Below, piece after piece: positions 2,798 to 64,000 of a stretch of 64,000 bases of DNA. A model generated the notes under the pieces. The model was not told the origin of the DNA. It worked only from the letters and a program-made list of their open reading frames with translations, and ran no database searches. Every line of letters begins with the position of its first letter. Position 1 is the first letter of the stretch. The translations under genes were made by a program, and so were the position numbers. This stretch comes from Candidatus Omnitrophota bacterium (GTDB taxonomy: Bacteria > Omnitrophota > Gorgyraeia > Zapsychrales > Fredricksoniimonadaceae), in the NCBI GenBank assembly GCA_903944345.1, contig CAJARJ010000014.1, forward strand, positions 64,990 to 128,989, read 5' to 3'.

Positions 2798-2870
2798 CGC
2801 CCCCGGGCCGACTCGAACGGCCACAACAGCCTTAGGAGAGCCGTGCTCTATCCTGTTGAGCTACGGGGGC
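2798..2870 (-). tRNA. tRNA-Arg (anticodon CCU), 73 nt, CCA not encoded
   Basis: Reverse complement is GCCCCCGTAGCTCAACAGGATAGAGCACGGCTCTCCTAAGGCTGTTGTGGCCGTTCGAGTCGGCCCGGGGGCG. Acceptor stem GCCCCCG/CGGGGGC. D-stem GCTC/GAGC. T-arm GGCCG-TTCGAGT-CGGCC. Anticodon loop CTCCTAA, giving CCT. The anticodon stem has two G-U pairs. Confidence 0.8.
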
Positions 2871-47469: not shown

Positions 47470-49596
47470 TTAACAGCAAGAAGAAACACCTGGCAACTGC
47501 AGGCAAACCTTGGTCCACTGGCCATACTCGGATGTCAGGGCAATCTCGCCCCCTTGTCCTTTAACCAGGTTCTGCATCGCATAAAGGCCAAGTCCGGTGC
47601 CATTCTCCGTGCCCTTGGTGGTAAACAAAGGAATAAAAACTTTCTCCATATTCTCCGGCCTGATGCCAATTCCATTATCCTCCAGCTCAATCCAGACCCG
47701 ATCGGACCGGACCTCGGCCCGAACGATAATCCGCCCCATATATCCGGCAACCTGTTCCCCGGATTTTCTGCGAGCCCTTATAGCGTCCAGGCTGTTGTCA
47801 AAAGCATTGGCAAAAACATCCTGGATAACGGCATCGTTAACCCAGAGTTGTATATCTTCGCCGTAATCCTCGAGAAATTCGATCTTGACCCCCGGATGCT
47901 TAACTTCAGCCAAGGCTCGCCCCCCCTGAATGAGATCCCTGAGCCTGACAACACGCGGTTCGGCACCTTTCTTGCTGGAACGCTTGAGAGCGTCGGCAAT
48001 CGAACGGGAACTCAGAGCGTCGCGGATGATCAGCGGATAATTCCGGAAACACTCCCTTATTTTGCTAACCAGCTCATCACGGGAATTGTTCTGCAGAGCA
48101 TTCTCATCGAGCAAGTCCTGGGCAATCCACAACTCGGCTGTGATCCGGTTCAGGCGATTAGCCATCTGATGAGCCACGGCCGAGCCAAGCAACCCGATCT
48201 CTTTCAATCGCCGGTCATGCATCTTTTCCTCAAAACTCTTGCGCTCCTGCTCATAGTTCTGGGCATTGACAATCGCCATGGCACCGTTAATTGCCACGTC
48301 ATTTAGAACCTCCAGATCGCGGTCAGAATACACACGCCCTGCTTTTTCGCCCAATAAAAGCAAGCCTGGCATTGATCCGGCCCTGCGGAAAGGAACCGCC
48401 GCCGCTGCTGGCACGCTGGAGAGCGCCTTGACCAGAAGTGCTGTCTTCTGCTCATCCTCGCATTTGACCACCCCCTGACGGAATTCATCCAGATACCGGG
48501 TGCCGTGCTTTTTAAGAAACAAAACCAGCGGATGATCTGCAGGCAAAGCCTCAGGGTATCCATGCGACTGACCGTAGACCTCTTTGCGCAGATAAGCTTC
48601 TCCATCAAACAAATAAAACACCGCGGCCATCGGACGAAACGTCTTGCCGATAATATCGACCACCGAACGAATAATGTCGTCGGCATTAAGAATATCGGCA
48701 AAAGTTGTGGAAACACGCGTTATCACGGCCTGACGTTCACGTTCTTCTCTAAGAATCTTGTCCTCGGCCTGCTTGCGGAAATAACCGTAGATGAACGGCG
48801 CAGGAGTGGCAAAAAGAATGGCCGAACATAAAGCGATAAAATAGTACCCTTTATTGTAGAGGATAAAAGGAATTCCCAAAGCCACGGAATAAACAACCAG
48901 GAAAATGCCCGCTGTGGTTATGGCTACGCGGATGTCCATCAAACTATGCCGTGTAATTGCATAGGTTACCGCAACAACATAAATAACCACAAGACTTACC
49001 CCAAATGGATAAATAGGGATGTTAAACACATAAAAGAATGTCGTTGCTCCTCCTAAGAAACCAATCATTGTCCCAAATAAAATATATTTCGACTGCACTG
49101 CAACAATGGCACTCGAACTCCTATAAAACTTATAAAGCAAATATAACCCCCTCCCAGCCAAGAACGAGAAGAATGGAAAGAAAAAATAATAAAGTATTCC
49201 CGGCTTTGGATAATATAAAAACTCTGCCTTCGGAGAGACTTTCGGAATAAACAAACTGGGGAATAATAACGCTAGAATTATTATGATGAAAGCGATGACA
49301 TAATAGGAAATGAATTCCTTCTTTTTCGAAGACTTAGAAAATAGAAAAACAAAATGAACAAAAAAGGTTGGAATAGAAATTGCTGATAAATTCAAAAAAC
49401 GCAACCAAAAAAGAGCTGAGGCATGGTCTGTTGATGAATAAGCCTTAAACAATCCAAATCCCCAAAACGCTACTGCTAAACTAAAAACCGACCAAGTAAA
49501 CTTTAAAATACTAAAGGGGCGACTCAAAATAACCATCAGGAAACATAATGCACTGCCTAAGGCTATGATGACGCCTGACATTGAAAGATAATTCAT
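47470..49596 (-). CDS. Sensor histidine kinase: multi-pass (>=7 TM) membrane sensor region, GAF domain, HisKA and HATPase_c, no receiver
   Basis: N-terminal 300 aa hydrophobic. GAF-like middle. H-box GSAVAHQMANRLNRI. N-box and G-boxes (NAFDNSLDAI, DNGIGI, GTGLGL). ATG overlaps the upstream methyltransferase stop (ATGA). The 5' third of the gene is strongly AT-rich. Confidence 0.75.
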   Translation of the reverse strand: MNYLSMSGVIIALGSALCFLMVILSRPFSILKFTWSVFSLAVAFWGFGLFKAYSSTDHASALFWLRFLNLSAISIPTFFVHFVFLFSKSSKKKEFISYYVIAFIIIILALLFPSLFIPKVSPKAEFLYYPKPGILYYFFFPFFSFLAGRGLYLLYKFYRSSSAIVAVQSKYILFGTMIGFLGGATTFFYVFNIPIYPFGVSLVVIYVVAVTYAITRHSLMDIRVAITTAGIFLVVYSVALGIPFILYNKGYYFIALCSAILFATPAPFIYGYFRKQAEDKILREERERQAVITRVSTTFADILNADDIIRSVVDIIGKTFRPMAAVFYLFDGEAYLRKEVYGQSHGYPEALPADHPLVLFLKKHGTRYLDEFRQGVVKCEDEQKTALLVKALSSVPAAAAVPFRRAGSMPGLLLLGEKAGRVYSDRDLEVLNDVAINGAMAIVNAQNYEQERKSFEEKMHDRRLKEIGLLGSAVAHQMANRLNRITAELWIAQDLLDENALQNNSRDELVSKIRECFRNYPLIIRDALSSRSIADALKRSSKKGAEPRVVRLRDLIQGGRALAEVKHPGVKIEFLEDYGEDIQLWVNDAVIQDVFANAFDNSLDAIRARRKSGEQVAGYMGRIIVRAEVRSDRVWIELEDNGIGIRPENMEKVFIPLFTTKGTENGTGLGLYAMQNLVKGQGGEIALTSEYGQWTKVCLQLPGVSSCC

Positions 49597-50639
49597 ATCT
49601 TACTAGCTTTAAGAATCCAATAGCTATTACATCCGACCGGATTCTCGACCTTAAATATTTTATTCCCTGTCAAATCTACACCCCACTCTGATAGTTCCTC
49701 TTTTGTTCTATGGTACATCCGCCAATCCCCAAACACTTCATAATAGGCTCTATGTCTAGCATTCTCTAAAGACATATTAAAAATGATTAAATCTTTCTTT
49801 GTGATTGAGAACAGTCTGGCAAAGATCTTTCTCGCGACACGCACACTCAAATAATCAAAAACTCCAGAAGCATATAGAAGTTCAACATTAGCAAACAATG
49901 AAAGGAATTGGTCGTTCTTGATGACCTCGACCAAGTCCATCACATAAAAATGAATATCGATCTTTGTTTTATCATAAACCAAATTTGATAACTGCCGTTG
50001 CACATATGAAACTGCTTTCTTCTCAAGATCTAAAAGATGAAATGTCCCTTGCTCTATTTTCCCTTCTTGCAAAAGCTCAATAATTTCTCGCGCAGAACCA
50101 CAACCAACACTCAGAATAGCAGCATCCTTATTTACCGTTAACGTCTGCAGTATTGAATTCTTTATGTAATCTTTTCGTGCGATATTTGATTTCGCAACAT
50201 TAATATTGCATGTATATCTATTTATAAGCATAGAATACAAGGAGTCACCCAAGTATCTTTTGTCATGATAATCATAAATATAATTCATCATTACAAAATC
50301 TCCGGCATAACCAAGAGGCCTACTACGAATATATGTATTTGTCTCGATTGAGTTCCCTAAATACGGGTAAAGTATTTGATTAAAAAAACATCTCTTTTCC
50401 TCGAAAACGTGGTCTTTGAAACTTAAAAAATATTCCCAGAACTCATCGAAGTACGCATCTAAAACCGGGAATAGCTTCTCAGCCGCAGAAAGTAATATCT
50501 TTTCTTTATCAACATACATTGAGCTAATATTAAATTGATCAAGCTCGTCTTTTGTAACACGCAAAATTTCTTTTAAAGACTCCACCTCTTCTTCAAAAGA
50601 TTGACTTCTAGACTCAACAACAATCATTTTATTTCCCAT
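49593..50639 (-). CDS. Class I SAM-dependent methyltransferase, PhcB-like (3-hydroxy-fatty-acid methyl-ester synthase family?)
   Basis: 348 aa. SAM motif ILSVGCGSAREIIELL followed by an acidic residue. RSRPLGYAGD motif that I associate with the PhcB family from memory (unverified). SD GAGGGGAAAG. Very low GC. Confidence 0.55.
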   Translation of the reverse strand: MGNKMIVVESRSQSFEEEVESLKEILRVTKDELDQFNISSMYVDKEKILLSAAEKLFPVLDAYFDEFWEYFLSFKDHVFEEKRCFFNQILYPYLGNSIETNTYIRSRPLGYAGDFVMMNYIYDYHDKRYLGDSLYSMLINRYTCNINVAKSNIARKDYIKNSILQTLTVNKDAAILSVGCGSAREIIELLQEGKIEQGTFHLLDLEKKAVSYVQRQLSNLVYDKTKIDIHFYVMDLVEVIKNDQFLSLFANVELLYASGVFDYLSVRVARKIFARLFSITKKDLIIFNMSLENARHRAYYEVFGDWRMYHRTKEELSEWGVDLTGNKIFKVENPVGCNSYWILKASKI

Positions 50640-51045
50640 GACTTTCCCCTCAACACACTGAAGAGTCCAATCCTAAAAAATGTCAGAAGCTTGGGAACCT
50701 TTAATAAAAAAACGAATCTGCATTTCTCGTTAATAAAAATATAGAGAATCTATGACGAAACTCCGATGAATAAGACTAACCACCATACTTATATCTCTAG
50801 AAAAGCTCCCAAACTTTCCGAATAAATTTGATGATTCCAAAATTATCAGTTACTTAATATACCAGCCTTTAGACGCTTCCATTTCATCGAACCAACATTT
50901 TACCCCACAATTTCTTCAGATCCCAGCTTACAACAGACACCCTTACTGACCTGCTAATGATTCTTCTTGGCAAGCTTGAAAGAGACTTATGCTTTGGCTT
51001 TGGCCTCTGACACTGCCCAAGCAAGCGCATCTTGCTAGGCATACA

Positions 51046-51093: not shown

Positions 51094-51309
51094 ACTGCCC
51101 AACACATCCACATAGCAGTTGCCCTCTGGGCTACCTTCGATAGTCTTTACCTTCTTCCGACGAAAGACAACAAGCAATATATCATACCCCTCAAAAAAAA
51201 CAACAACTTTCTCGCCGTCAGCACACTTTCTATCGCCGGAGAGCGCCCGTATTCAAACCGGACGAATCAGGAATTGACTTTATCCCTGCTTTCTATTATC
51301 GTTCTAGCC

Positions 51310-54300
51310 ATGAATAATCCCTTCTCTAAACACCCTATAGCCCAGGCGTTAAACCAACGCATTCTTGTTCTTGACGGTGCCATGGGCACCATGATCCAGC
51401 GCCACCGCTTGACCGAAGAAGCCTACCGCGGAGGCCCCCAAGGGCGTTTTGGCTCCTGGCATAGCGACCTGAAAGGCAATAACGACCTGTTGTCGCTCAC
51501 CCAGCCTGCCATCATCGCTGACATCCATCGTGCCTACCTTGAAGCTGGTGCGGATATCATTGAAACCAATACCTTTAACGCCAATCGCATTTCCATGGCG
51601 GACTATCACATGGAAAGCCTGGTTGGCGAGCTCAATCTGGCCTCTGCCCGGCTGGCACGCTCTGTCTGCGACGAATTCACCAAAAAAAATCCCGCACGCC
51701 CGCGTTTTGTTGCCGGTTCTATTGGACCCACCAATCGCACTGCGTCCATATCACCGGATGTCAATGACCCCTCCTTCCGCGCGGTCACCTTTGACCAGCT
51801 GGTTGAAGCCTACACGGAACAAATCCTTCCCTTGGCGGAAGGCGGCGTGGATTTGCTGCTCATTGAAACCATTTTTGATACCCTTAACGCCAAAGCCGCA
51901 GTCTTTGCCGCGTTGACCTTTAACGAAACAGCCGCCCGTCCTTTGCCACTCATTATTTCGGGCACCATAACTGACGCCTCGGGCAGAACCCTTTCCGGCC
52001 AGACAGCAGCGGCTTTCTGGACTTCCCTAAAGCACGCCCGTCCGCTGGCCTTTGGATTCAACTGCGCGCTCGGAGCAAAAGACCTGCGCCCGCATATTGC
52101 CGAAATTTCAGATCTGGCGGATACCTTTATCAGCGCCTACCCCAATGCCGGATTGCCAAACCAGTTCGGCGAATACGACCAAAACCCTGAAACCATGGCC
52201 GCCCTGATTCGCGAGTTTGCCATCAGCGGACTGGTCAATATTGTAGGCGGCTGCTGCGGCTCGACCCCCGAACATATCCGGGCCATTGCGAATGCAGTCA
52301 ACGCCGTACCGCCAAGAAAAATTCCTGCAATTGCTCCGGCTTCGTCCTGGAGCGGGCTCGAACCACTCGTACCGGGAACCAGCCCCGTTTTTATAAATAT
52401 CGGGGAACGCACCAATGTGACCGGATCCAAAAAATTTGCCAAACTGATTATTGAAGAAAAATACGAAGAGGCCCTGGCGATTGCCCGCCAGCAGGTCAAT
52501 GCCGGCGCCCAGATTATCGATATCAACATGGATGAAGCCATGCTGGATTCGCTCTCGGCCATGACCCGTTTTCTCAACCTGATTGCAGCGGAACCGGATA
52601 TCGCCCGCGTTCCGGTCATGATCGACTCATCCCGCTGGGATGTTATTCTCGCCGGGCTCAAATGTGTGCAGGGCAAACCGCTGGTCAATTCGATCAGCCT
52701 CAAGGAAGGTGAAGACCTTTTCCGGCAACGCGCCAACATCATCCGCAAGTTCGGGGCGGCCGCGGTTGTTATGGCGTTTGACGAGCAGGGCCAAGCGGAT
52801 ACCAAAGAACGTAAAACCGCCATCTGCTCCCGGGCCTACCGTATTCTTGTTGAAGAAGCCGGATTCCCGGCAGAAGACATCATCTTTGATCCCAATGTTT
52901 TCGCGGTGGCTACCGGGATCGAAACCCATAACCGCTACGCTCTTGATTTTATCGAGGCCGTGCGCGAAATCAAACGCACTCTGCCTCTGTGCCGGGTCTC
53001 CGGAGGGATCAGCAACGTCTCCTTCTCCTTTCGCGGCAATGAGCCTGTCCGCGGAGCCATGCATTCGTCCTTTCTTTATCACGCGATCCAGTCCGGCCTG
53101 GACATGGGAATTGTCAATGCGGGGGTCATTCCGGTCTACAACGAAATCGCCCCGGATCTTCTGGCCTGCGTCGAAGATGTTCTGCTCGACCGGCGCAAGG
53201 ATGCTACCGAGCGACTGGTCACCCTGGCCGGAACTGTCCAGACCCAGCAGCAGAAGACTGTGGAAGATGATGCCTGGCGCAAAACTTCTCTGGAAGAACG
53301 ACTGGCCCATGCTCTGGTCAAAGGGATAACAGATTTTATCGATGCCGATATAGAAGAAGCCCTGAAACTTTATCCGCGTCCGCTCTCTATTATAGAAGGG
53401 CCGCTGATGACCGGAATGAACCGGGTCGGCGATCTTTTCGGAGAAGGAAAAATGTTCCTGCCCCAGGTGGTCAAAAGCGCCCGGGTCATGAAAAAAGCCG
53501 TGGCTGTCCTGCAGCCCTTTATTGAACAGGACAAATCCTCGCAAGCCTCAAGCGCCGGGAAGATCATTATGGCCACCGTCAAGGGTGACGTCCATGATAT
53601 CGGAAAAAACATCGCAGGGATCGTTCTGGCCTGCAACAACTTTGAAATTATTGATCTGGGCGTTATGGTGCCCTGCGACCGCATCCTGGCCGCGGCACGC
53701 GAACACAAGGCCGACATCATCGGACTTTCCGGGCTGATCACCCCTTCACTTGAAGAAATGACCCATATCGCCGCGGAAATGCGCCGCCAGCATTTTTCCA
53801 TCCCGCTGATCATCGGAGGAGCAACCACCTCCGAAAAACATACCGCTGCCAGGATCGCTACGGAATACCACGGACCGGTCATCCATGTCAAAGATGCCTC
53901 GCGGGCTGCGGGGATTTGCCGCAAACTGATGGACCCCGGCACTGCGGAAACATTTATCCTTGAACAAGCGGCGCACCAGAAGATGCTGCGCGAACGCCTG
54001 GCTGCCGAACAGCAAACGGCCTGGAAACTTCTTCCTCTCAAAGAAGCCCGGCAGATGAAAACCCCGATCCAATGGTCGCAGGACATGGTCTGCTCGCCTC
54101 GCCGGATGGGCATCACCAGCTTCAAAAACTTTGATATACGCCGGATACGGGCAAGAATTGACTGGTCGTTCTTCTTTCTGGCCTGGGGCATCAAGGGGCG
54201 TTATCCTGCGCTCATGAAAGACCCCAAAACCGCCACAGAAGCCGGAAAACTTTTTACCGATGCCCAGGCCATGCTCGATCAAATCGAAAAGCGCGCACTG

Positions 54301-54990
54301 CTGCGCTGTCAGGGGGTTGCGGCCTTTTTCCCCGCCAACAGTTCCGGAGACGATATCGAAGTTTACACTGACGAAACCCGCAGCAAACTCGCAGCGCGTT
54401 TTGCGACCCTGCGTCAGCAAGTGTTCAAGCCGGAAGGCGAGCCCTGCCGCGCGCTGGCCGATTTTGTGGCACCGGTTTCGTCCGGGCTCAAAGACTATCT
54501 TGGAATGTTCGCCGTGACCTCCGCAGAAGGCATGACAGAGGCCGTCAAACTCTACCGCGGTGATGACTACAACATAATCATGCTCAAAATTCTGGCTGAT
54601 CGTCTGGCGGAAGGCTTTGCCGAAGTCCTGCACGAAACCGTCCGCAAAGACCTCTGGGGTTACTCACCGGACGAACAACTGACCAACGAAGACATTATTG
54701 CCTGCCGTTATCGCGGCATCCGACCGGCTCCGGGATATCCCGCCTGCCCCGATCATACCGACAAGGCAGCCATCTGGCAGCTGACGGATGCCCAGGCCAG
54801 AACCGGCATCAGCCTGACAGAAAGCTTCATGATGCTCCCGGCGGCATCAGTCTGCGGATTTTACTTCTCCCACCCCGTAGCCACCTATTTTCCTATCGGA
54901 CGCATTGACCACGAACAGCTCTGCGACTATGCACAACGCAAAAACTGGACCATCGAAGAAGCCCAAAAATGGCTGGCCCCGCTGATCTGA
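51310..54990 (+). CDS. metH: Cobalamin-dependent methionine synthase
   Basis: [30 protein letters not shown]... followed by Hcy-binding, pterin-binding, B12-binding (DVHDIGKNI = DxHxxG) and AdoMet reactivation domains. ATG at 51310. The ORF-track start at 51274 is a TTG. Confidence 0.9.
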
Positions 54991-57010: not shown

Positions 57011-59059
57011 TTAAAAACGATACTCCACGCTCAAGCGGTAATTACGACCCGGGCTGGGGTAATAAAACCGGTCCGAATAAAGCGTCGAAGAATTAAAAGC
57101 ATACCCGGCCATTTCCGCATACTCTTTATCCAGCAGATTGTTAACCCCCACCGACAGTTTCCAGTCCTGTATTGTCCATAGAATGTTGGTATCCATAACC
57201 ATATAGCCGTTCACCCGGCCCTGGGCATTGGCCTGGTCATTAAGACCATAACGGCGCCCGACATACGAGGAGCCGACATCCCAGTTCAAGTCTCTGGATA
57301 AAAGAACTCTCAGCCCCAGTGCCGCTTTATGCCGGGGAACCAAAGGAATACTGTTGCCGTTATAAATGCCGTTTTCAAACTCGGCCTCGGTCAAGGAGTA
57401 GTTACCATAAACCGACAGGCTCCCGGCCAGCCGAATATCTGCCGACGAAGTCAGCCCCTGGTGAGTGGTGCGGTCGTAATTCTCGTTCTTGCCAAACCCC
57501 CATGGTCCGCCATTGGAATTATAGTAAAGCTCGTCCTCCATGTTTGTCCGAAACAGCGCCACCGAAGCCTTTCTGCCCTCGGCGAACTGGTGCCTGACCC
57601 CCAACTGAAAGGTCCTGGCTGTCTGTGGACGTAAAGAAGTATCCAGCTGCTGCTGGAAAGCGGCATCCTGGTAAGAAAACTCGTCAACTGCGGGAAAACG
57701 AAAACTCTGTGCCATGTCCGCAAAAACATTTGAAGCAGGCGCATATTCATACACCAGCCCGTTATTCCATGCCCGCATCACTGGCCGGGTTTTCGTGTCC
57801 TGGTCGGGATAGGGATGCCCCCAACTGGTCGTGTCATAATCATGATAATTAAACGCATACCGGGCCGTCTCATAACGCACCCCCGTAATAAAACTCAACG
57901 GATCCAGAAGCGCCAGTTCATTCTGGATATAGCCTGCCAGCGACGACTTGGTCACATGGGTGTAATTCTGGAGCGACTGATCATCCATATACTCGTTCTG
58001 GGACGAACGATAAAATGATTTATAAAGGTCAGCGCCCGCAACCAGACGGTTGTCGCGGCCTGCCAGTTGCAGCTGCCATACATGCCGGGGTGTCAGGCCA
58101 AAGGTTTCGATATCATTGCGCAAAGTAGGATTGCCCGAACTAAGAAAGAACGAGTCTGTCTTTTTGCGGCGGTAACTGAAATCCAGCAAAGACTCGCCCT
58201 TATCCATAGACTGATTCTTAAGCCCGATCACAACATAATCATCCCCGTTCTTTGTATAATCTTCGGCATAACGCGCATAACGCCGGCCATACTGGTCAAT
58301 ATGGTTCTGCCAGAGAGCGCCAGGCATGCCGTAACGGGCTGTATGGCTCCCCGCTCCGAGACTGACCGCGAAAGTATCCGTCAGTTCAAGTGCGGTGTTC
58401 ATGGAAAAGTTTTCTGTCCGGCTGAAAGAATTCATCCGGTAACCGTTAGACTCGCTGCGTCCGGCATCAAAACGATAATCATAACGATTTGCGGCCCCCC
58501 CACTGACAGAGACACTCTGATCCAGCGCACCATAACTTCCTGCCCCGGCTTTGAGAACCCCCTGAAGACTCCCGGAACCGCGTTTACTGACAATATTAAT
58601 AACACCGCTTGAAGCGTTGTCGCCATAAAGCACTCCGCCTGCACCCGAGCGCAATATTTCTATTCTTTCAATCCGTTCAACAGGAATCTGTGCCCAGTCC
58701 ACCCCGCCAAGATCCACATCGTTAAGCCTGCGTCCGTCAAGCATAACCAGGACATTGAGAGCCCCCTGCTCGCCAAATCCCGCAATATCTACCGCCGTCT
58801 TCATACCATTCCCGTACCAGTCACGCACATCCAGTCCGGGTTGGGAACGCATGACGTCCGCCACGGTCCGCGCATTCATCTGTTGCAATTCTTCCTGGCT
58901 TATCACGGTCAAATCAGCGGCAGTTTTCCCGGCCAAATCCTCATACCGAAACGGTGTAATCACCAGCCGGCCCAGATCCCCTCCTTCTGCGGACCAGAGC
59001 AATCCGGCTGTCATTTCCACAAAAAGTACTACCATCAACAGGACTCTTCCTAAAAACAT
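57011..59059 (-). CDS. btuB: TonB-dependent outer-membrane receptor, BtuB-like (cobalamin/corrinoid uptake inferred from the riboswitch)
   Basis: Signal peptide. TonB-box-like LVITPF. Plug domain. 22-strand barrel, terminal ...VEYRF. Preceded by a cobalamin riboswitch. Confidence 0.75.
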   Translation of the reverse strand: MFLGRVLLMVVLFVEMTAGLLWSAEGGDLGRLVITPFRYEDLAGKTAADLTVISQEELQQMNARTVADVMRSQPGLDVRDWYGNGMKTAVDIAGFGEQGALNVLVMLDGRRLNDVDLGGVDWAQIPVERIERIEILRSGAGGVLYGDNASSGVINIVSKRGSGSLQGVLKAGAGSYGALDQSVSVSGGAANRYDYRFDAGRSESNGYRMNSFSRTENFSMNTALELTDTFAVSLGAGSHTARYGMPGALWQNHIDQYGRRYARYAEDYTKNGDDYVVIGLKNQSMDKGESLLDFSYRRKKTDSFFLSSGNPTLRNDIETFGLTPRHVWQLQLAGRDNRLVAGADLYKSFYRSSQNEYMDDQSLQNYTHVTKSSLAGYIQNELALLDPLSFITGVRYETARYAFNYHDYDTTSWGHPYPDQDTKTRPVMRAWNNGLVYEYAPASNVFADMAQSFRFPAVDEFSYQDAAFQQQLDTSLRPQTARTFQLGVRHQFAEGRKASVALFRTNMEDELYYNSNGGPWGFGKNENYDRTTHQGLTSSADIRLAGSLSVYGNYSLTEAEFENGIYNGNSIPLVPRHKAALGLRVLLSRDLNWDVGSSYVGRRYGLNDQANAQGRVNGYMVMDTNILWTIQDWKLSVGVNNLLDKEYAEMAGYAFNSSTLYSDRFYYPSPGRNYRLSVEYRF

Positions 59060-59074
59060 AATACCCCTTTCATG

Positions 59075-59290
59075 AAAAAACCCTTTTGCTACCGAAGTAA
59101 CAAAAGGGGTCTATAAAATTAAACAGTTTATGGACGCCTTATGCCGTTACGCGCAGCATGATCGCATTATATTGTTCAGGTCTTCTGACTTGCCGCGCAG
59201 GATTTTTCCTGCGCACGGCTCACAGTAGCGCGACTGTCCGTGAATTTCACACGGTTTCCCTGACATCAAATTTTAGATAGAGACTTGCCT
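59075..59290 (-). promoter_or_regulatory. Cobalamin (B12) riboswitch with intrinsic-terminator expression platform
   Basis: Minus-strand leader contains GGGAAACCGUGUGAAAUUCACGG (conserved GGGAA...GGUG..AAxUCC core) and GCUACUGUGAGCCGUG. B12-box-like AGUCAGAAGACCUG. Helix GCGCAGGA-aaaa-UCCUGCGC. Then hairpin ACCCCUUUUG-uuacuucgguag-CAAAAGGG followed by UUUUUUC, ending 10 nt before the btuB-like ATG. Confidence 0.65.
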
Positions 59291-59299
59291 CCTGAAGTT

Positions 59300-59806
59300 T
59301 CAGTCTCTGAGTAACACAGGAGCCAGCCGGGTGCCTTTGACCCGACGGACAAAAAATTCATATGAACCAAACAGAACAACAGTATACACAAGCGTGCTGG
59401 CCAACATCGTCCGGAAGAAAGGCACGGCAAGCGCATAGCACTCAAAAAGGCCTTCCCGGGTCAGCGGATAATACGCCAGCCAGGCTCCGAAATTGGTGAC
59501 CAAAAAGAACACCACCGCCGAAACGACCGCACCGGAAAGAATCCGTGAAGGACGGTTAGCCTGACGAACCCACAAACCGATCAAACCAGTCAGAAGAACA
59601 CTTCCCCAGGTAAACGCAAGCGTCGGATGCAAACCCAAAAGAAGATCCGTGCCGATCATAAGAACAAGCGGCAGCCATAGCGCCTGGGAACGGCGCAAGT
59701 AAACACCGCCAAACAAGGCGATGGCCAGAACGGGAGAAAAATTGGGAGCATGCGGCAGTAACCGCGCCAGGGAACCGACAATTAACAGAACAAGTACAAG
59801 AACCAT
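59300..59806 (-). CDS. Hypothetical small polytopic membrane protein (about 5 TM)
   Basis: 168 aa, MVLVLVLLIVGSLARLL.... SD AGGAGG. No family assignment. Confidence 0.5.
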   Translation of the reverse strand: MVLVLVLLIVGSLARLLPHAPNFSPVLAIALFGGVYLRRSQALWLPLVLMIGTDLLLGLHPTLAFTWGSVLLTGLIGLWVRQANRPSRILSGAVVSAVVFFLVTNFGAWLAYYPLTREGLFECYALAVPFFRTMLASTLVYTVVLFGSYEFFVRRVKGTRLAPVLLRD

Positions 59807-59854
59807 GCATGCCTCCTGATATCTGAAAACACAGACAAATCCATTTTGTCCGGA

Positions 59855-60229
59855 TTAAACCTCGGCGACAACCTCGATCTCGACCAAAACATCCTTGGGG
59901 ATACGCGCAACCTGCAAGGTTGAGCGGGCCGGGAAATTTGAAGGTATATACTGACTGTAAACTTTATTCATTCCGGCGAAATCATTAAGATCCTTAAGAA
60001 ACACCGTAACCTTGACCACCCGGGACAAAGAGGATCCGGCATCTGCCAGAACGAGCTTGATGTTCTCGAAAACCCGCAAAGTCTGCTCTTCAATGCCTCC
60101 CGCAACCACCTGACCGGTCAACGGATCAAGCGGAATCTGACCGGCACAAAAGACCAGATTCCCGGAAATAACTGCGTGATTATACGGCCCTAAAGGTTTG
60201 GGAGCCTGCACTGGCTGAACAATTTTCAT
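59855..60229 (-). CDS. ridA: RidA/YjgF-family reactive-intermediate deaminase
   Basis: APKPLGPYNHAVISGNLVFCAGQIP...RSTLQVARIPKDVLVEIEVVA. SD AGGAG. Confidence 0.85.
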   Translation of the reverse strand: MKIVQPVQAPKPLGPYNHAVISGNLVFCAGQIPLDPLTGQVVAGGIEEQTLRVFENIKLVLADAGSSLSRVVKVTVFLKDLNDFAGMNKVYSQYIPSNFPARSTLQVARIPKDVLVEIEVVAEV

Positions 60230-60299
60230 AAGAAAACTCCTGTTGATATTCCAATGAATGCCAATAATACCCTGCCGCCAGGATTATGGCAAGCGTAAA

Positions 60300-61163
60300 T
60301 CAAAGATTCCTGGGTTTACGAAAAACCACCAGCCAGGAACTGTTCAAATTTGAATAAAAAACATTCGGATAACCCAGAAGAACCAGCCGACGCTGATCGT
60401 TTTGGTCCCAGACGATCAAATCGTGATGTTTCCAGCCTGCCGCAACACCAAGATTGATAATATCCGCATGGACCGGAATATACTGCGCACCGTTATGCGA
60501 ATCCCGCTGGTCACGAACAACCCACACGCTGTAACCGCCTTCGCGGGTTACTCCAAACACTTTCCTGAAAACATTTTTAAGTTCATCCAGATACATGCGA
60601 TACCCGAAATTGCCAAAATCATCCAGACGCAGGCTATGCGCGGGCACACGCTCGGACATTTCTTCGAGTTGATCCGTCTTGCGCGGACGACCCGGCCCCT
60701 TGGGTTTGGGTGGACGAATATCAAAATTGGGATACGGCGGAGCCGTCAGCGTAACCTGGACCGAACCCAAAAACACATGCTTTTCCATGGCTCGGCAGTC
60801 GTCGCAAATGATCTCGTGGCGTAAAGCCTGATGCGTCCCGAACAGATCGGTCTTTTCCTTGTCAATAAGAGTCCGGGCAAGCTCACAGAAGCGGGACTGC
60901 AGTTCGATACCAACACCTACCCGGCCAAGCTTGGCGGCCGCAACAACCGTAGTTCCGATCCCCGCAAAAGGATCAAATACCAAATCCCCTTCTTTTGAAT
61001 AAAGGGTCACCACCCGCTCGGCCAGCGCCAGAGGAAAAGTTGCTCCGTGTAAAAGATGATACGACTGCCGCGGCGAACTGACATCGTTCCAGACATTCTT
61101 GCTTAATACAGTCCAGTCTTTGGCCGAAAGGCCATTAAAAGATTCGTCAGCGGGTCTGGTCAT
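60300..61163 (-). CDS. N6-adenine/N4-cytosine-type DNA amino-methyltransferase homologue with motif I upstream of motif IV (APPY variant) and an AT-hook-like GRPRK stretch
   Basis: HLLHGATFPLALAERVVTLYSKEGDLVFDPFAGIGTTVVAA (SAM-binding, PF01555-like). About 75 aa later VTLTAPPYPNFDI (motif IV with Ala in place of D/N/S). Then PKPKGPGRPRKT, then YLDELKNVFRKVFGVTREGGYSVWVV. ATG at 61163 has GGAGGG upstream. An alternative ATG at 61175 exists. Confidence 0.6.
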   Translation of the reverse strand: MTRPADESFNGLSAKDWTVLSKNVWNDVSSPRQSYHLLHGATFPLALAERVVTLYSKEGDLVFDPFAGIGTTVVAAAKLGRVGVGIELQSRFCELARTLIDKEKTDLFGTHQALRHEIICDDCRAMEKHVFLGSVQVTLTAPPYPNFDIRPPKPKGPGRPRKTDQLEEMSERVPAHSLRLDDFGNFGYRMYLDELKNVFRKVFGVTREGGYSVWVVRDQRDSHNGAQYIPVHADIINLGVAAGWKHHDLIVWDQNDQRRLVLLGYPNVFYSNLNSSWLVVFRKPRNL

Positions 61164-61214
61164 GCGGCCCTCCATGATGGGAAGTGTCCAATGCCAGATA
61201 CTAGCATAAAAACG

Positions 61215-62561
61215 TCAAATTGCAACGCTGCCGGAATCCTCGGGCGCATCTTCATCCATGATATCGGCAGACATCAAAACGGAGGCTTCTCCGGCAGGCA
61301 ATTGCTGAACATCCTTGAGTTTGCGTCCAACCATCCTCGAGCGCACCTTGGCTTTCTCGATAGTTTCCGAGGCCTGATTCAGTTTCTTTTGCACATTATC
61401 AAGAATATCGCCGTACTTGGTCCACTCGGTCTTGACTGCGGCCAGCAGATTCCAGACTTCACTGGATCGCTTCTGAATAGCAAGTGTACGAAACCCCATT
61501 TGCAAACTGCTTAGAAGCGACCATAACGTAGTAGGCCCTGCGATAACCACACGATACTCCCTCTGGATAACCTCGGTCAGAGCAGGCCGGCGGACAACTT
61601 CGGCAAACAAGCCTTCGACAGGAAGAAACAAAATACCGAAATCCGTGGTTGCCGGCGGGCTTAGATACTTCTCGGAAATATTTCTGGCGCAAAAACGAAC
61701 ACTGCTTTCCAGCTGTTTGCCAGCCAGTTCCGCACCTTCGATATCTGCCCGCTCCTGGGCCTCGACCAGACGCTGGTAATCTTCAAGAGGAAACTTGGCA
61801 TCCACCGGAAGCCACACTGACTGATCATCGGCGCCACTCTGCCCGGGCAGTTTGATAGCAAATTCAACCCGTTCGGCCCCGCCCTTGGTGGCGACATTGG
61901 CCGCAAACTGATCCGGACCAAGCACCTGGTCAAGCAAGGCTCCCAATTGAACCTCACCCCAGGTGCCGCGTGTTTTAACGTTCGTAAGCACCTTGCGTAA
62001 ATCGCCCACACCGGTGGCTAATACCTGCATTTCCCCCAGGCCTTTATGCACCAGCTCCAGACGATCACTGACCTGCTTGAAGGATTCGCCCAAACGCCTT
62101 TCAAGTGTCCCCTGAAGTTTCTCATCTACAGTCTGGCGCATCTGATCCAGCTGTCTGGCGTTATCGGCCTGCAAGCTTTTTAGTTTTTCTTCGACGGTGG
62201 CTCTGATCAACTCCAGGCGGCGCTCATTGGCTTCGGCCAGCTTGGCCACAGAAGAAGACACGGCCTCAAGCTGAACCTTTTCGGCAGCCGACAAATCTTT
62301 TATGGTACTAACCATCGTTCCGGAAATCTTCTCGAGTGTGGCAATAACTTCTTCCCGCTGCTGCCGCCCGGACTTGTTGTGTTCCTCCCGGCCCAGCAAA
62401 GCTTCTTCCCTGATAACACGCTCAAGACGTTCCTGGGCTTTTTCGAGAGAATCAAAACGTAACAATACCCCAGAGATATCCAGACGGGAAAATCGAACGA
62501 ACACATACAGGAACAAACCCGTTAATAAAACGAGATTAAGGCCAAGCAAAATATTTGTCAT
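61215..62561 (-). CDS. rmuC: DNA recombination protein RmuC (N-terminal TM and coiled-coil, C-terminal restriction-endonuclease-like domain)
   Basis: MTNILLGLNLVLLTGLFLYV, a long coiled-coil, C-terminal KTRGTWGEVQLGALLDQVL...ILFLPVEGLFAEV typical of the RmuC family. Confidence 0.8.
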   Translation of the reverse strand: MTNILLGLNLVLLTGLFLYVFVRFSRLDISGVLLRFDSLEKAQERLERVIREEALLGREEHNKSGRQQREEVIATLEKISGTMVSTIKDLSAAEKVQLEAVSSSVAKLAEANERRLELIRATVEEKLKSLQADNARQLDQMRQTVDEKLQGTLERRLGESFKQVSDRLELVHKGLGEMQVLATGVGDLRKVLTNVKTRGTWGEVQLGALLDQVLGPDQFAANVATKGGAERVEFAIKLPGQSGADDQSVWLPVDAKFPLEDYQRLVEAQERADIEGAELAGKQLESSVRFCARNISEKYLSPPATTDFGILFLPVEGLFAEVVRRPALTEVIQREYRVVIAGPTTLWSLLSSLQMGFRTLAIQKRSSEVWNLLAAVKTEWTKYGDILDNVQKKLNQASETIEKAKVRSRMVGRKLKDVQQLPAGEASVLMSADIMDEDAPEDSGSVAI

Positions 62562-62603
62562 AAATTATTCCTCAGGCGAGAACAACGTAACGGCGGCAAA
62601 TCT

Positions 62604-63203
62604 TCAGGAGTAATCCCTCACAACCTGCAAAACTTTGCCAATAATGGAAATATCAGCCGACATAGGGATCGGTGAGAAATCCGGATTGGACGGATCAAGA
62701 AAAAAGTCGGAGCCTCTTCTGGCCAAGCGTTTGATGGTGGCTTCTTCGCCGGCCAGTGCCACAACAATATCGCCGGGCTGGGCATGCTCCTGTTTACGCA
62801 CCAGCACAAAATCGTTTTCCATAATACCGGCATCTTTCATGCTCTGCCCGCGCACCCGCAAAGCAAACACGTCCGGTTCGGGAAATACAAAACGGTCAAG
62901 ATTAAGATAACCCAGAAGATCTTCGGCGGCATAAACCGGCATACCGGCCTGGACACGGCCAAGCACCGGAATCTGAAACAAAGCTTCTTTAACCAGCTCG
63001 ATCGCGCGGGACTTGCCTTCCTGGATACGAATGTAACCTTTTTTAACCAGAGCGCTCAGATGATCGCGCACCGTTCCGGTGGAAGAAAAACCGAAGTGCT
63101 CGCCAATTTCGCGGACAGTCGGGGCCAGCTGTTTGAAACGGATCTGTTCGTAAATAAATTTGAGAACGTCTTTTTGTTTGTCAGTCAGTGTGTTTGTATC
63201 CAT
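62604..63203 (-). CDS. lexA: LexA repressor (SOS regulator; winged HTH and S24 peptidase domain)
   Basis: MDTNTLTDKQKDVLKFIYEQI... Cleavage-site VAAEDLLG (Ala-Gly-like). Catalytic GQSMKDAGI...VLVRKQ. ATG at 63203. Confidence 0.85.
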   Translation of the reverse strand: MDTNTLTDKQKDVLKFIYEQIRFKQLAPTVREIGEHFGFSSTGTVRDHLSALVKKGYIRIQEGKSRAIELVKEALFQIPVLGRVQAGMPVYAAEDLLGYLNLDRFVFPEPDVFALRVRGQSMKDAGIMENDFVLVRKQEHAQPGDIVVALAGEEATIKRLARRGSDFFLDPSNPDFSPIPMSADISIIGKVLQVVRDYS

Positions 63204-63240
63204 AAAACGTATAATACCGCACGCATGGGTGGATTTCAAG
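63204..63240 (-). promoter_or_regulatory. Candidate sigma-70 promoter for lexA (TTGAAA-17 nt-TATTAT) ending 7 nt before the ATG (possible leaderless transcript)
   Basis: Minus-strand reading: TTGAAAtccacccatgcgtgcggTATTATacgttttATG. No convincing LexA-box palindrome identified by eye. Confidence 0.35.
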
Positions 63241-63286: not shown

Positions 63287-64000
63287 CTACAGCCTTGTTT
63301 CTATCGTGCCTCTTAGCACTTTCCGGTCAAACAAAGCCAGTTCAGATTTGTCGACCAGAAATCTTTCCACATCCTTCCGGGCGGCATCTATATCCATTCT
63401 CTCGATACGCTCCAGCAGAAATTTCTTGAAACTGCCGGCATCAAGATGAAGATGAGTGCCTTGCGTCTGATAAATCGCATTGTTCAACAGAACCCAGTTC
63501 GGCACAATCCTCTGCCCCAGATACCAGTAAAGATCATAAATATCCCGGCCCTTGGTGTACTGGCGGTAACACAAGGCATGAATTTTTCCGGCAAACAGCG
63601 ACGGAAGGTCGTAATGAACTACATTGCAGATAAATGTTTCTGTCAGCGCGGTATTAGCCAGGCACCAACCCGCCGGCGGATTGAGATCAACTTCCAGCTT
63701 GATCTGCACTTTGCGGCTGACCATCGGGTCAAGTTCAAGCTTCCGGAGTATCCCGGGAAACTTCATCATCAGCCCGTGAACATTGCCATTAATCCTTGGC
63801 TTGCCTTCCATCTCAAGACCGTACAACGCAAACTGCCGGACAAGGGCAGTATTCAGCGAACTTATATCAAACCCTTCCGTGCGCGTGGCAGAAAAATCGA
63901 GATCCTCCGAAAACCTTCTGACGCGGTAAATGATCCTGAGCGCAGTTCCTCCAATAAAAGCCAGCTGTTTAAAAATTCCCCGGTCACCAAGAATTTTAAG
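63287..64000 (-). CDS. AbiEii/AbiGii-family nucleotidyltransferase toxin (partial; N-terminus lies beyond the right edge)
   Basis: Frame continues upstream of the ORF-track TTG start. Translation to the window edge reads LKILGDRGIFKQLAFIGGTALRIIYRVRRFSEDLDFSATRTEGFDISS..., matching the F-KGGTAL...RFSEDLDF hallmark of AbiEii/DUF1814 toxins. C-terminal 179 aa are in the window. Confidence 0.6.
   Translation of the reverse strand, partial: LKILGDRGIFKQLAFIGGTALRIIYRVRRFSEDLDFSATRTEGFDISSLNTALVRQFALYGLEMEGKPRINGNVHGLMMKFPGILRKLELDPMVSRKVQIKLEVDLNPPAGWCLANTALTETFICNVVHYDLPSLFAGKIHALCYRQYTKGRDIYDLYWYLGQRIVPNWVLLNNAIYQTQGTHLHLDAGSFKKFLLERIERMDIDAARKDVERFLVDKSELALFDRKVLRGTIETRL

Follow-up and report, generated by a model that had tools for sequence, protein, structure and literature searches.

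A 64,000-nt stretch of DNA from a Candidatus Omnitrophota bacterium (GenBank assembly GCA_903944345.1, contig CAJARJ010000014.1, positions 64,990 to 128,989 of the forward strand; hereafter the window) carries a gene for the nuclease RmuC and a gene for an unusual DNA amino-methyltransferase side by side behind lexA. Do these two genes form a functional pair, or did they become neighbors in another way? A preliminary description of the locus, which had been made from the sequence alone, proposed that nuclease and methylase could be a damage-inducible restriction-modification (R-M)-like or defense module. We examined the region 59300-63240 in detail and searched its open reading frames (ORFs) against profiles from Pfam, NCBIfam/TIGR, PADLOC and Rfam. 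Our reading, to which we give a probability of about 0.7, is that a domesticated orphan methylase lies behind lexA, that a canonical rmuC was inserted between them, and that rmuC and the methylase gene would be neighbors by insertion and not a nuclease-methylase pair.

Gene order around lexA and the methylase gene

All five ORFs of the region point in the same direction on the minus strand. The string consists of lexA (62604..63203, 199 aa), rmuC (61215..62561, 448 aa), the gene for the predicted orphan DNA amino-methyltransferase (60300..61163, 287 aa), ridA (59855..60229, 124 aa), which codes for a Rid-family enamine/imine deaminase, and, last, the gene for a DUF6580 membrane protein (59300..59806, 168 aa; PF20221, E 1.3e-44). 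RidA was assigned by its TIGR00004 score of 161.7 bits, which is above the curated cut-off of 106.25, and by its match to PF01042 (E 1.7e-42). Read from the sequence, the gaps along the string are 42 nt between lexA and rmuC, 51 nt between rmuC and the methylase gene, 70 nt between the methylase gene and ridA, and 48 nt between ridA and the DUF6580 gene. The second of these is 39 nt if counted from an earlier in-frame methylase ATG, which accounts for the range of 39-70 nt given in the preliminary description. The methylase most likely starts at the ATG at 61163 (287 aa), which has a GGAGGG Shine-Dalgarno sequence ahead of it and is the start used by all database homologues.

The closest homologues of the methylase are found in Omnitrophota metagenome-assembled genomes (MAGs), and in all of them ridA lies directly 3' of the methylase gene, after a gap of 3-110 nt. 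Following ridA there is usually a DUF6580 gene, a B12 riboswitch with a TonB-dependent receptor gene, and metH. On the other side, lexA lies 5' of the methylase gene in about ten Omnitrophota lineages, with methylase identities of 57-100%. The conserved block can be written as lexA-[variable slot]-methylase-ridA (loci L005/L011, L006, L008, L009, L010, L089, L092/L093, L094 and L095). The slot is empty in L005/L011, L009, L010 and L095, and the gap between lexA and the methylase gene in such lineages is 5-64 nt, for example 17 nt in L009. It is occupied by rmuC in the window species and in strain L092/L093, whose RmuC is 95% identical, by a gene for a 272-aa Bro-N protein in L006 (L006:6013-6831; PADLOC PDC-S13, E 1e-118), by a gene for a DUF4349 protein in L008 (L008:6068-6976), by a 1361-aa ORF with no family assigned in L089 (L089:1779-5864), and by two small ORFs in L094 (L094:6341-6976). 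An ORF of at least 3068 aa fills the slot in L003/L007 (L003:1-7960), where lexA is outside the retrieved stretch. We did not find rmuC in the slot of any other Omnitrophota lineage examined. The association with lexA that the preliminary description had drawn therefore stands for the methylase gene, whose synteny with lexA is conserved in about ten lineages, and falls for rmuC, which is not part of the conserved block. The same description had held that a lack of conserved rmuC-methylase adjacency among relatives would speak against a pair, and this is essentially what we observed: the adjacency is present in the window species and the strain with the 95% identical RmuC, and absent from the others. 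Since conservation of the adjacency stops at a near-identical strain, a defense pair of RmuC and methylase is not supported.

What kind of RmuC occupies the slot? The protein has an N-terminal hydrophobic helix (MTNILLGLNLVLLTGLFLYVFV), a coiled coil, and a full-length RmuC domain of the PD-(D/E)xK type (PF02646, E 1.8e-74, profile positions 2-287 of 291), which places it in the RmuC family. We take an ExxxF...VDAK pattern, read from the sequence, to be catalytic on the basis of family knowledge. RmuC scored 250.9 bits on the general PF02646 model and 34.9 bits on the defense-associated PADLOC model RTasRmuC (E 1.6e-9); we rejected the latter match as a sign of a defense system, because it reflects generic RmuC homology. 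Beyond its own species, the nearest RmuC homologues are 71-75% identical, the two named ones being from Binatia and Desulfomonilia. The rmuC relatives in other phyla have unrelated contexts, with one isolated and one adjoining priA. Judging from these comparisons, rmuC is a lineage-specific insertion between lexA and the methylase gene and possibly arrived by horizontal transfer. SOS control of rmuC would not be new, because both E. coli and Vibrio are known to have it: the E. coli SOS regulon includes rmuC (yigN; PMC6590174), and in V. cholerae mitomycin C raises rmuC expression 19.7-fold (PMC5963079). The placement of rmuC behind lexA would thus represent a known regulatory relation in a new physical arrangement.

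A permuted methylase descended from a restriction-modification system

The methylase matches PF01555 (E 1.7e-24) with 87.5 bits against a cut-off of 26.7, and only profile positions 137-219 of 221 are matched, at methylase residues 22-100. Because it is the C-terminal third of the profile that aligns there, the half that binds S-adenosylmethionine (SAM) is N-terminal, as had been described for this 287-aa protein. The three motifs pointed out earlier are all present on the minus strand: the SAM-binding motif I DPFAGIGTT (60948..60974, residues 64-72), motif IV APPY (60732..60743, residues 141-144), and an AT-hook-like GPGRPRK (60678..60698, residues 156-162). The alignment with the beta-class methylase TTHA0409 (2zie; E 2.4e-22) runs in permuted order. 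Methylase residues 15-106 pair with residues 191-279 of the 2zie chain, with the HxAxFP...DPFxGxGTT block kept, residues 124-149, which contain APPY, pair with chain residues 26-51, which contain SPPY, and residues 191-266 pair with chain residues 68-146. The linear beta-class order of motif IV, target-recognition region and motif I is therefore not the order of this protein. From the permuted alignment to 2zie and the partial PF01555 match, we conclude that, by sequence, the methylase is a circularly permuted PF01555 enzyme with motif I ahead of motif IV.

The distribution of the methylase family was determined in a scan of 185,579 genomes, one per species. We obtained 120 matching stretches, scattered over many bacterial and archaeal phyla, and six Omnitrophota species representatives carry the family. 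Outside the Omnitrophota, we inspected 74 loci and found a second methylase gene (M2) in 61, an ORF resembling a restriction endonuclease (REase) in 54, and both in 51. M2 codes for a second permuted PF01555 methylase of ~375 aa and lies 3' of the homologue of the window gene (M1). The product of the third cassette gene (R) has ~570-600 aa and matches the PADLOC profile REase_II PDLC03439 (E 4e-42), with no match in Pfam, NCBIfam or the PDB sequences. One M1-M2-R cassette is located on a 15-kb Helicobacter plasmid, pNHP190003_3 of Helicobacter sp. NHP19-003 (WP_260320722.1, WP_221281319.1, WP_221281328.1), and a methylase homologue is present in a Microcystis phage. The window methylase itself matches the PADLOC profile MTase_II PDLC03353 (E 9e-43) and, colinearly, PDLC03363 (E 1e-25). 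Given the cassette gene order in the 74 loci, the PDLC03439 match and the plasmid, we conclude that the family is the M1 gene of a mobile M1-M2-R system. The presence of two methylases per cassette suggests an asymmetric, IIS-like site; this deduction, like the one from the SPPY motif below, draws on established knowledge of methylase motifs.

The association with REases is thus a property of the family, and a cognate REase is not found beside the window gene. No homologue of M2 or of the family REase (PDLC03439) was detected in any Omnitrophota locus examined. Nor is there a restriction-enzyme homologue near the window methylase, which agrees with the preliminary description. Taken together, its sequence relationships indicate that the window gene is a domesticated orphan DNA methylase derived from the M1 gene of an R-M system and is not an RNA or protein methylase. 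Independent orphan copies also occur elsewhere (L022, L028, L034 (Methanocellaceae), L031 and L083), in methanogenic archaea and one Elarobacter MAG. Neither M2 nor R lies within 7 kb of these archaeal and Elarobacter copies, and TSPPY is retained in the Methanocella-type proteins that were sampled (e.g. P0101 and P0080). The separate orphan copies in methanogens and Elarobacter imply that partner loss occurred more than once.

Does the orphan still methylate DNA? A database search with the methylase returned 606 homologues of 265-335 aa. In an alignment of 28 diverse members, 57 columns are invariant and bacterial and archaeal members are ~50% identical. Motif IV is TSPPY in 112 of 120 homologues, and APPY is limited to the 7 closest of the 120 (at least 76% identity). 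The window protein therefore departs from the (D/N/S)PP(Y/F) form of motif IV in its first residue, Ala, and PPY is invariant in the family. In a neighbor-joining tree, the ten closest homologues (P0001-P0010) form one clade, the sampled members of which are Omnitrophota orphans, and the 7 APPY sequences are a sub-clade inside it. The next relative after the APPY set, orphan P0008, reads SAPY, and orphans P0009 and P0010 retain TSPPY with the same synteny. The loop after motif IV was rebuilt in the APPY clade, from the family consensus ANFIQRSIKDRKKTHKKS to PNFDIRPPKPKGPGRPRKTD, with the GRPRK core kept within the clade. An AlphaFold2 (AF2) model of the methylase has a predicted template modeling score (pTM) of 0.76 and a predicted local distance difference test (pLDDT) value below 50 at residues 150-175, so the GPGRPRK loop is predicted to be disordered.

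Selection on the APPY orthologues was estimated from nonsynonymous (pN) and synonymous (pS) differences, with pN at 0.07-0.15 per site and pS at 0.64-0.88; we report pN and pS as such, because synonymous sites are saturated for most pairs, which rules out dN/dS there. Low pN against saturated pS indicates that strong purifying selection maintains the methylase gene, which is not decaying. With selection this strong, the methylase has most likely kept its binding of SAM and DNA and its DNA-methylating activity, although the rate or site preference may have changed. The SPPY motif suggests N4 of cytosine as the target of the family, and the predicted product of the window enzyme is N4-methylcytosine (m4C). 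Literature searches for SPPY/APPY motif variants found none, and a 2026 Omnitrophota genome preprint (bioRxiv 10.64898/2026.06.07.730766) holds no methylome or LexA information.

The lexA promoter and rival explanations

The position of these genes behind lexA raised the question of how they might be expressed. LexA was identified by TIGR00498 (199.5 bits, cut-off 111), with PF01726 and PF00717 also matching, and comprises a winged-helix DNA-binding domain and an S24 self-cleaving peptidase. Its translation contains the Ala-Gly cleavage site (VQAGMP), the serine (GQSMKD) and the lysine (IKRL) of a bona fide LexA. The sigma-70-like promoter reported earlier was recovered by a promoter scan (10/12) at 63211..63239 on the minus strand, with a -35 box TTGAAA (63239..63234), a 17-nt spacer and a -10 box TATTAT (63216..63211). 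The start of lexA is the ATG at 63203; the longest lexA ORF would begin with a TTG at 63239, but this TTG belongs to the -35 box. In the window, the -10 box stops 7 nt ahead of this ATG. A promoter of the form TTGACA-17-TAtaAt, 6-7 nt from the lexA ATG and with no Shine-Dalgarno sequence, is found in 9 of 10 related lineages, the exception being L095, which has a 27-nt lexA leader and a Shine-Dalgarno sequence. Given so short a distance between -10 box and ATG and the lack of a Shine-Dalgarno sequence, we read the lexA mRNA as probably leaderless.

The spacer of this promoter contains a candidate LexA operator, CCACCCATGCGTGCGG (63217..63232, minus strand), which is a degenerate copy of the palindrome CCACAY-N4-GTGTGG. 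The palindrome is perfect in L005 (CCACACACATGTGTGG), has one mismatch in L006, L008, L010 and L089, and has two in the window and L092. When no more than one mismatch is allowed, it occurs at 5 sites in 142 kb of related loci, against ~0.3 expected by our own arithmetic on the search matches, and 5/5 are in the lexA promoter spacer. The palindrome is likely the LexA operator, and we infer that LexA binds it. We know of no LexA box in the literature that matches CCACAY-N4-GTGTGG, and in this Omnitrophota lineage the palindrome may represent a LexA box not described before. Several observations weigh against such an assignment. The window copy is the most degenerate of all, with 4 of 6 positions matching in each half; L009, L094 and L095 have no good left half; and the conserved right half shares its position with an extended -10 element (TGTGn), so that the palindrome may belong to the promoter and not be an operator.

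We searched for further operators in the 64-kb window and found CCACAC-N4-GTGTGG with up to three mismatches 14 times, against 18 expected, and never upstream of rmuC, the methylase gene or ridA. Likewise, with up to one mismatch, there is no second copy outside the lexA promoter in the 142 kb of related loci. Because the string has no second operator copy, LexA control of the downstream genes is possible by read-through alone. Read-through from the lexA promoter is plausible, because the genes of the window string are closely spaced and have no strong predicted terminator between them, and because an empty slot leaves just 5-64 nt between lexA and the methylase gene. A weak promoter-like site, TTGCAA-16-TAGTAT (61198..61225, minus strand; 8/12, below the scan threshold), overlaps the rmuC stop and may drive the methylase gene independently of lexA. 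Similar sites precede the methylase gene in L005 (TTGCCA-17-TATGAT) and L089 (TTGCAG-17-TAAAAT). A further promoter-like site, TTGCCA-17-TATTAT (60264..60292, minus strand; 10/12 in the promoter scan), lies ahead of ridA.

The sequence of events that we favor would start from an ancestral string of lexA, an orphan DNA methyltransferase gene, ridA, the DUF6580 gene, a B12 riboswitch and btuB. The methylase would derive from M1 of a mobile two-methylase Type II (IIS-like) M1-M2-R cassette, of which M2 and R were lost and M1 was fixed in the lineage. Motif IV would have changed from SPPY to APPY in a sub-clade, where the loop behind it was rebuilt as the AT-hook-like GPGRPRK, and the variable slot behind lexA would have received a canonical rmuC. 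lexA would be read from the conserved, probably leaderless sigma-70 promoter with its likely operator palindrome in the spacer. DNA damage would induce rmuC, and possibly the genes behind it, only through read-through from that promoter.

How do other explanations compare? The proposal that RmuC and the methylase form a LexA-controlled, damage-inducible R-M-like or anti-recombination/defense module strikes us as very improbable. The two genes are indeed adjacent and co-directional, 39-51 nt apart and 3' of lexA, toxin-antitoxin and CRISPR genes lie 5' of lexA, and RmuC-domain proteins are part of some defense systems, for which the weak RTasRmuC match could be cited. Weighing against our own reading, a Collierbacteria contig (L013:1-2659; DQFC01000017.1) has a truncated rmuC-like ORF, 31% identical to the window RmuC, directly 5' of an M1-M2 cassette, and this is the sole other rmuC-methylase adjacency seen, which makes 2 independent cases in about 85 loci. 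However, a single case among 74 loci could arise by chance, and adjacency in the Omnitrophota is confined to one species and one near-identical strain, with about nine other lineages keeping lexA-methylase-ridA without rmuC. In addition, the true nuclease partner of the methylase family is the 570-600-aa REase, to which RmuC is unrelated, RmuC scores far higher on the general than on the defense-associated model, and its closest relatives are in housekeeping contexts such as that of priA. The tempting idea of an SOS-controlled nuclease-methylase defense module is thereby dropped as unsupported. We also think it unlikely that, once its R-M partners were lost, the methylase gave up DNA methylation and became a catalytically dead DNA-binding protein or an RNA or protein methyltransferase. 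Replacement of Ser, Asp or Asn by Ala in motif IV could cripple catalysis, SAPY in the sister orphan hints at relaxed constraint on the motif, and both variants are restricted to the orphan Omnitrophota clade, in which the loop after motif IV was rebuilt. The methylase gene is also closely coupled to ridA, a metabolic gene, from which only 3-12 nt separate it in several lineages. When the AF2 model was compared with the PDB by Foldseek, the best matches were generic Rossmann methylases and Trm11, with template modeling scores of ~0.5 and 12-18% identity, and an archaeal m4(2)C rRNA synthase was also among the top matches. These observations count against a DNA methylase, although the Foldseek result is not discriminating, because the search depends on sequence order and cannot align permuted DNA methylases, which are the nearest ones; we did not use it for substrate assignment. 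Against a change of function, the methylase keeps motif I and the 57 invariant family columns, purifying selection is strong, and P0009 and P0010 have TSPPY in the same synteny. In sequence comparison with the PDB, RNA or protein methylases gave marginal E-values (0.07 for 8vyd, 0.4 for PrmA) compared with that of 2zie, searches of Pfam and NCBIfam gave no match to a HemK/RsmD/Trm11-type family, and the Pfam search detected no THUMP or other RNA-binding domain. We rejected a HemK/RsmD/Trm11-type identity, because there is only an order-driven fold resemblance and the relatives are in R-M cassettes. The earlier assignment to DNA rather than HemK/RsmD-type methyltransferases is upheld by these relatives, which are the M1 genes of M1-M2-R cassettes.

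The other explanations concern expression. It is conceivable, though doubtful, that the string is no functional unit and consists of five independent genes with their own promoters, in which the order lexA-methylase-ridA is merely inherited. The putative promoters ahead of the methylase gene and ridA, which may allow expression independent of LexA, are a point against our reading and in favor of this one. In L089, the stretch between the inserted gene and the methylase gene contains a terminator-like hairpin and a promoter-like site, the string has no second operator copy, and the functions of a repressor, a nuclease, a methylase, a deaminase and a membrane protein are unrelated. On the other side, the spacing of lexA and the methylase gene is tight where the slot is empty, gene order persists down to 57-58% methylase identity while the flanks and slot content change, and the window string is predicted to be free of strong terminators. 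At the opposite end, the APPY methylase could be co-transcribed with lexA and provide damage-inducible DNA methylation, an epigenetic arm of the SOS response, with the slot docking SOS-type cargo such as rmuC and the L006 Bro-N gene. We advance this tentatively and hold it to be rather unlikely. The Bro-N protein has the same length as E. coli DinD and is 25% identical to it over 144 aa (pairwise E 0.004), with an E-value of 0.0098 on the NCBIfam DinD model, which is suggestive only of a weak likeness to DinD. We retain the reading in which an orphan methylase behind lexA received rmuC as a neighbor by insertion.

Flanking regions and comparison with known systems

Downstream of the DUF6580 gene, the same-strand run extends past 59300 with a cobalamin riboswitch, a TonB-dependent receptor gene, recQ and a response regulator gene. 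The riboswitch (59157..59296, minus strand; Rfam RF00174, 32.2 bits, gathering score 31.5) starts 3 nt past the DUF6580 stop and is followed by a terminator-like hairpin (59081..59108, minus strand) and by the gene for a BtuB-like TonB-dependent receptor with Plug and beta-barrel domains (57011..59059, minus strand). Judged by match and position, the riboswitch is the downstream boundary of the string and controls the receptor gene. The B12-dependent metH is nearby on the plus strand (51274-54990). In the relatives L003, L005, L006, L089 and L095, the DUF6580 gene is always between ridA and the B12 riboswitch and TonB receptor gene, and in L094 (L094:8664-11300) Peripla_BP_2, FecCD and ABC_tran (BtuFCD-like) genes are found in its place. 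This replacement suggests that DUF6580 is an inner-membrane B12 importer. Literature searches for DUF6580 found none. A match of RidA to the PADLOC model PD-T4-2_B (E 7.6e-39) was rejected as a sign of defense, because it reflects the shared RidA domain at positions 170-291 of 294.

Upstream of lexA lies an AbiEii toxin gene (63287..64000 and beyond, minus strand; PF08843, E 6.6e-15), of which the 3' 238 codons are in the window with the frame open to its end. The protein has 267 aa in the same genome, and an AbiEi-like gene precedes it. Further 5' of lexA in this genome (L001:1-5877) are type I-C Cas genes (Csd1, Cas7, Cas4, Cas1 and Cas2), BrnT and AbiEi/AbiEii. The defense neighborhood announced in the preliminary description is therefore real, with an intact AbiEii ORF. 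The strain with the 95% identical RmuC has genes for Fic, DUF6088/AbiEii, AAA_14/DUF4143 and PIN proteins there (L092:1-5275), and more distant relatives have FKBP-DsbD-redoxin. By its gene content, the region upstream of lexA is a strain-variable defense and toxin-antitoxin island. Elsewhere in the window, a 2-kb island (49000-51000) has a G+C content of 35%, against ~52% elsewhere, and is possibly foreign DNA. Within it lie a 348-aa ORF (50639..49593), whose matches to class-I methyltransferases are all weak, and the first part of a gene for a 7TM-GAF histidine kinase (49596..47470). Apart from the riboswitch, the window gave one RNA family match, to a single tRNA gene (2798-2870, minus strand; Rfam RF00005, 57.5 bits).

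What does the locus add to known systems? It offers an example of domestication, in which the first methylase of a mobile two-methylase R-M system became a vertically inherited solitary gene, with its catalytic motif and DNA-contact loop altered after partner loss. For this Omnitrophota lineage it also offers a candidate LexA operator and a probably leaderless lexA promoter. If the enzyme is active and LexA-controlled, it would represent rare damage-inducible DNA methylation in an uncultivated phylum; otherwise it would be an ordinary orphan methylase. The interest of the locus would lie in an APPY enzyme that is both active and damage-inducible.

The closest known systems are the M1-M2-R cassettes. 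The window methylase is homologous to M1 over its full length, at 44-54% identity, and has the same permuted order and a similar size (M1 is ~285-320 aa). It differs in that M2 and the 570-600-aa REase are absent, in reading APPY and not TSPPY, and in its rebuilt loop, and it is fixed at one chromosomal site by lexA and ridA, whereas the cassettes are patchily mobile. Like Dam and CcrM, the window methylase is stand-alone, without a restriction partner, vertically conserved and under purifying selection. CcrM is also a PF01555 protein, and the NCBIfam CcrM model matches the window methylase partially (E 1.3e-11). In contrast to Dam and CcrM, the window methylase is permuted, has an SPPY-derived (m4C-type) and not a DPPY motif, is narrowly distributed, and is not known to be connected with replication or the cell cycle. 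With the beta-class enzymes TTHA0409 (2zie), the N4-cytosine methylases 8s9m/8s9n and M.PvuII (1boo), it shares the catalytic domain and SAM-binding half, but the halves are reversed and the target-recognition region is very short. Trm11/UPF0020-type enzymes (6zxw, 5e71 and 8vyd) likewise have motif I before an (N/D/S)PPY-type motif IV, in Rossmann-fold order; however, the window methylase is only 12-18% identical to them, lacks THUMP, and has its relatives in R-M cassettes and not in RNA-modification contexts. Finally, the window RmuC has the full-length domain architecture of the E. coli and V. cholerae proteins and a predicted association with LexA control, here by position. The gamma-proteobacterial rmuC is a separate locus in the SOS regulon, with rmuC-tatABC synteny according to the cited paper, whereas the window rmuC lies directly behind lexA.

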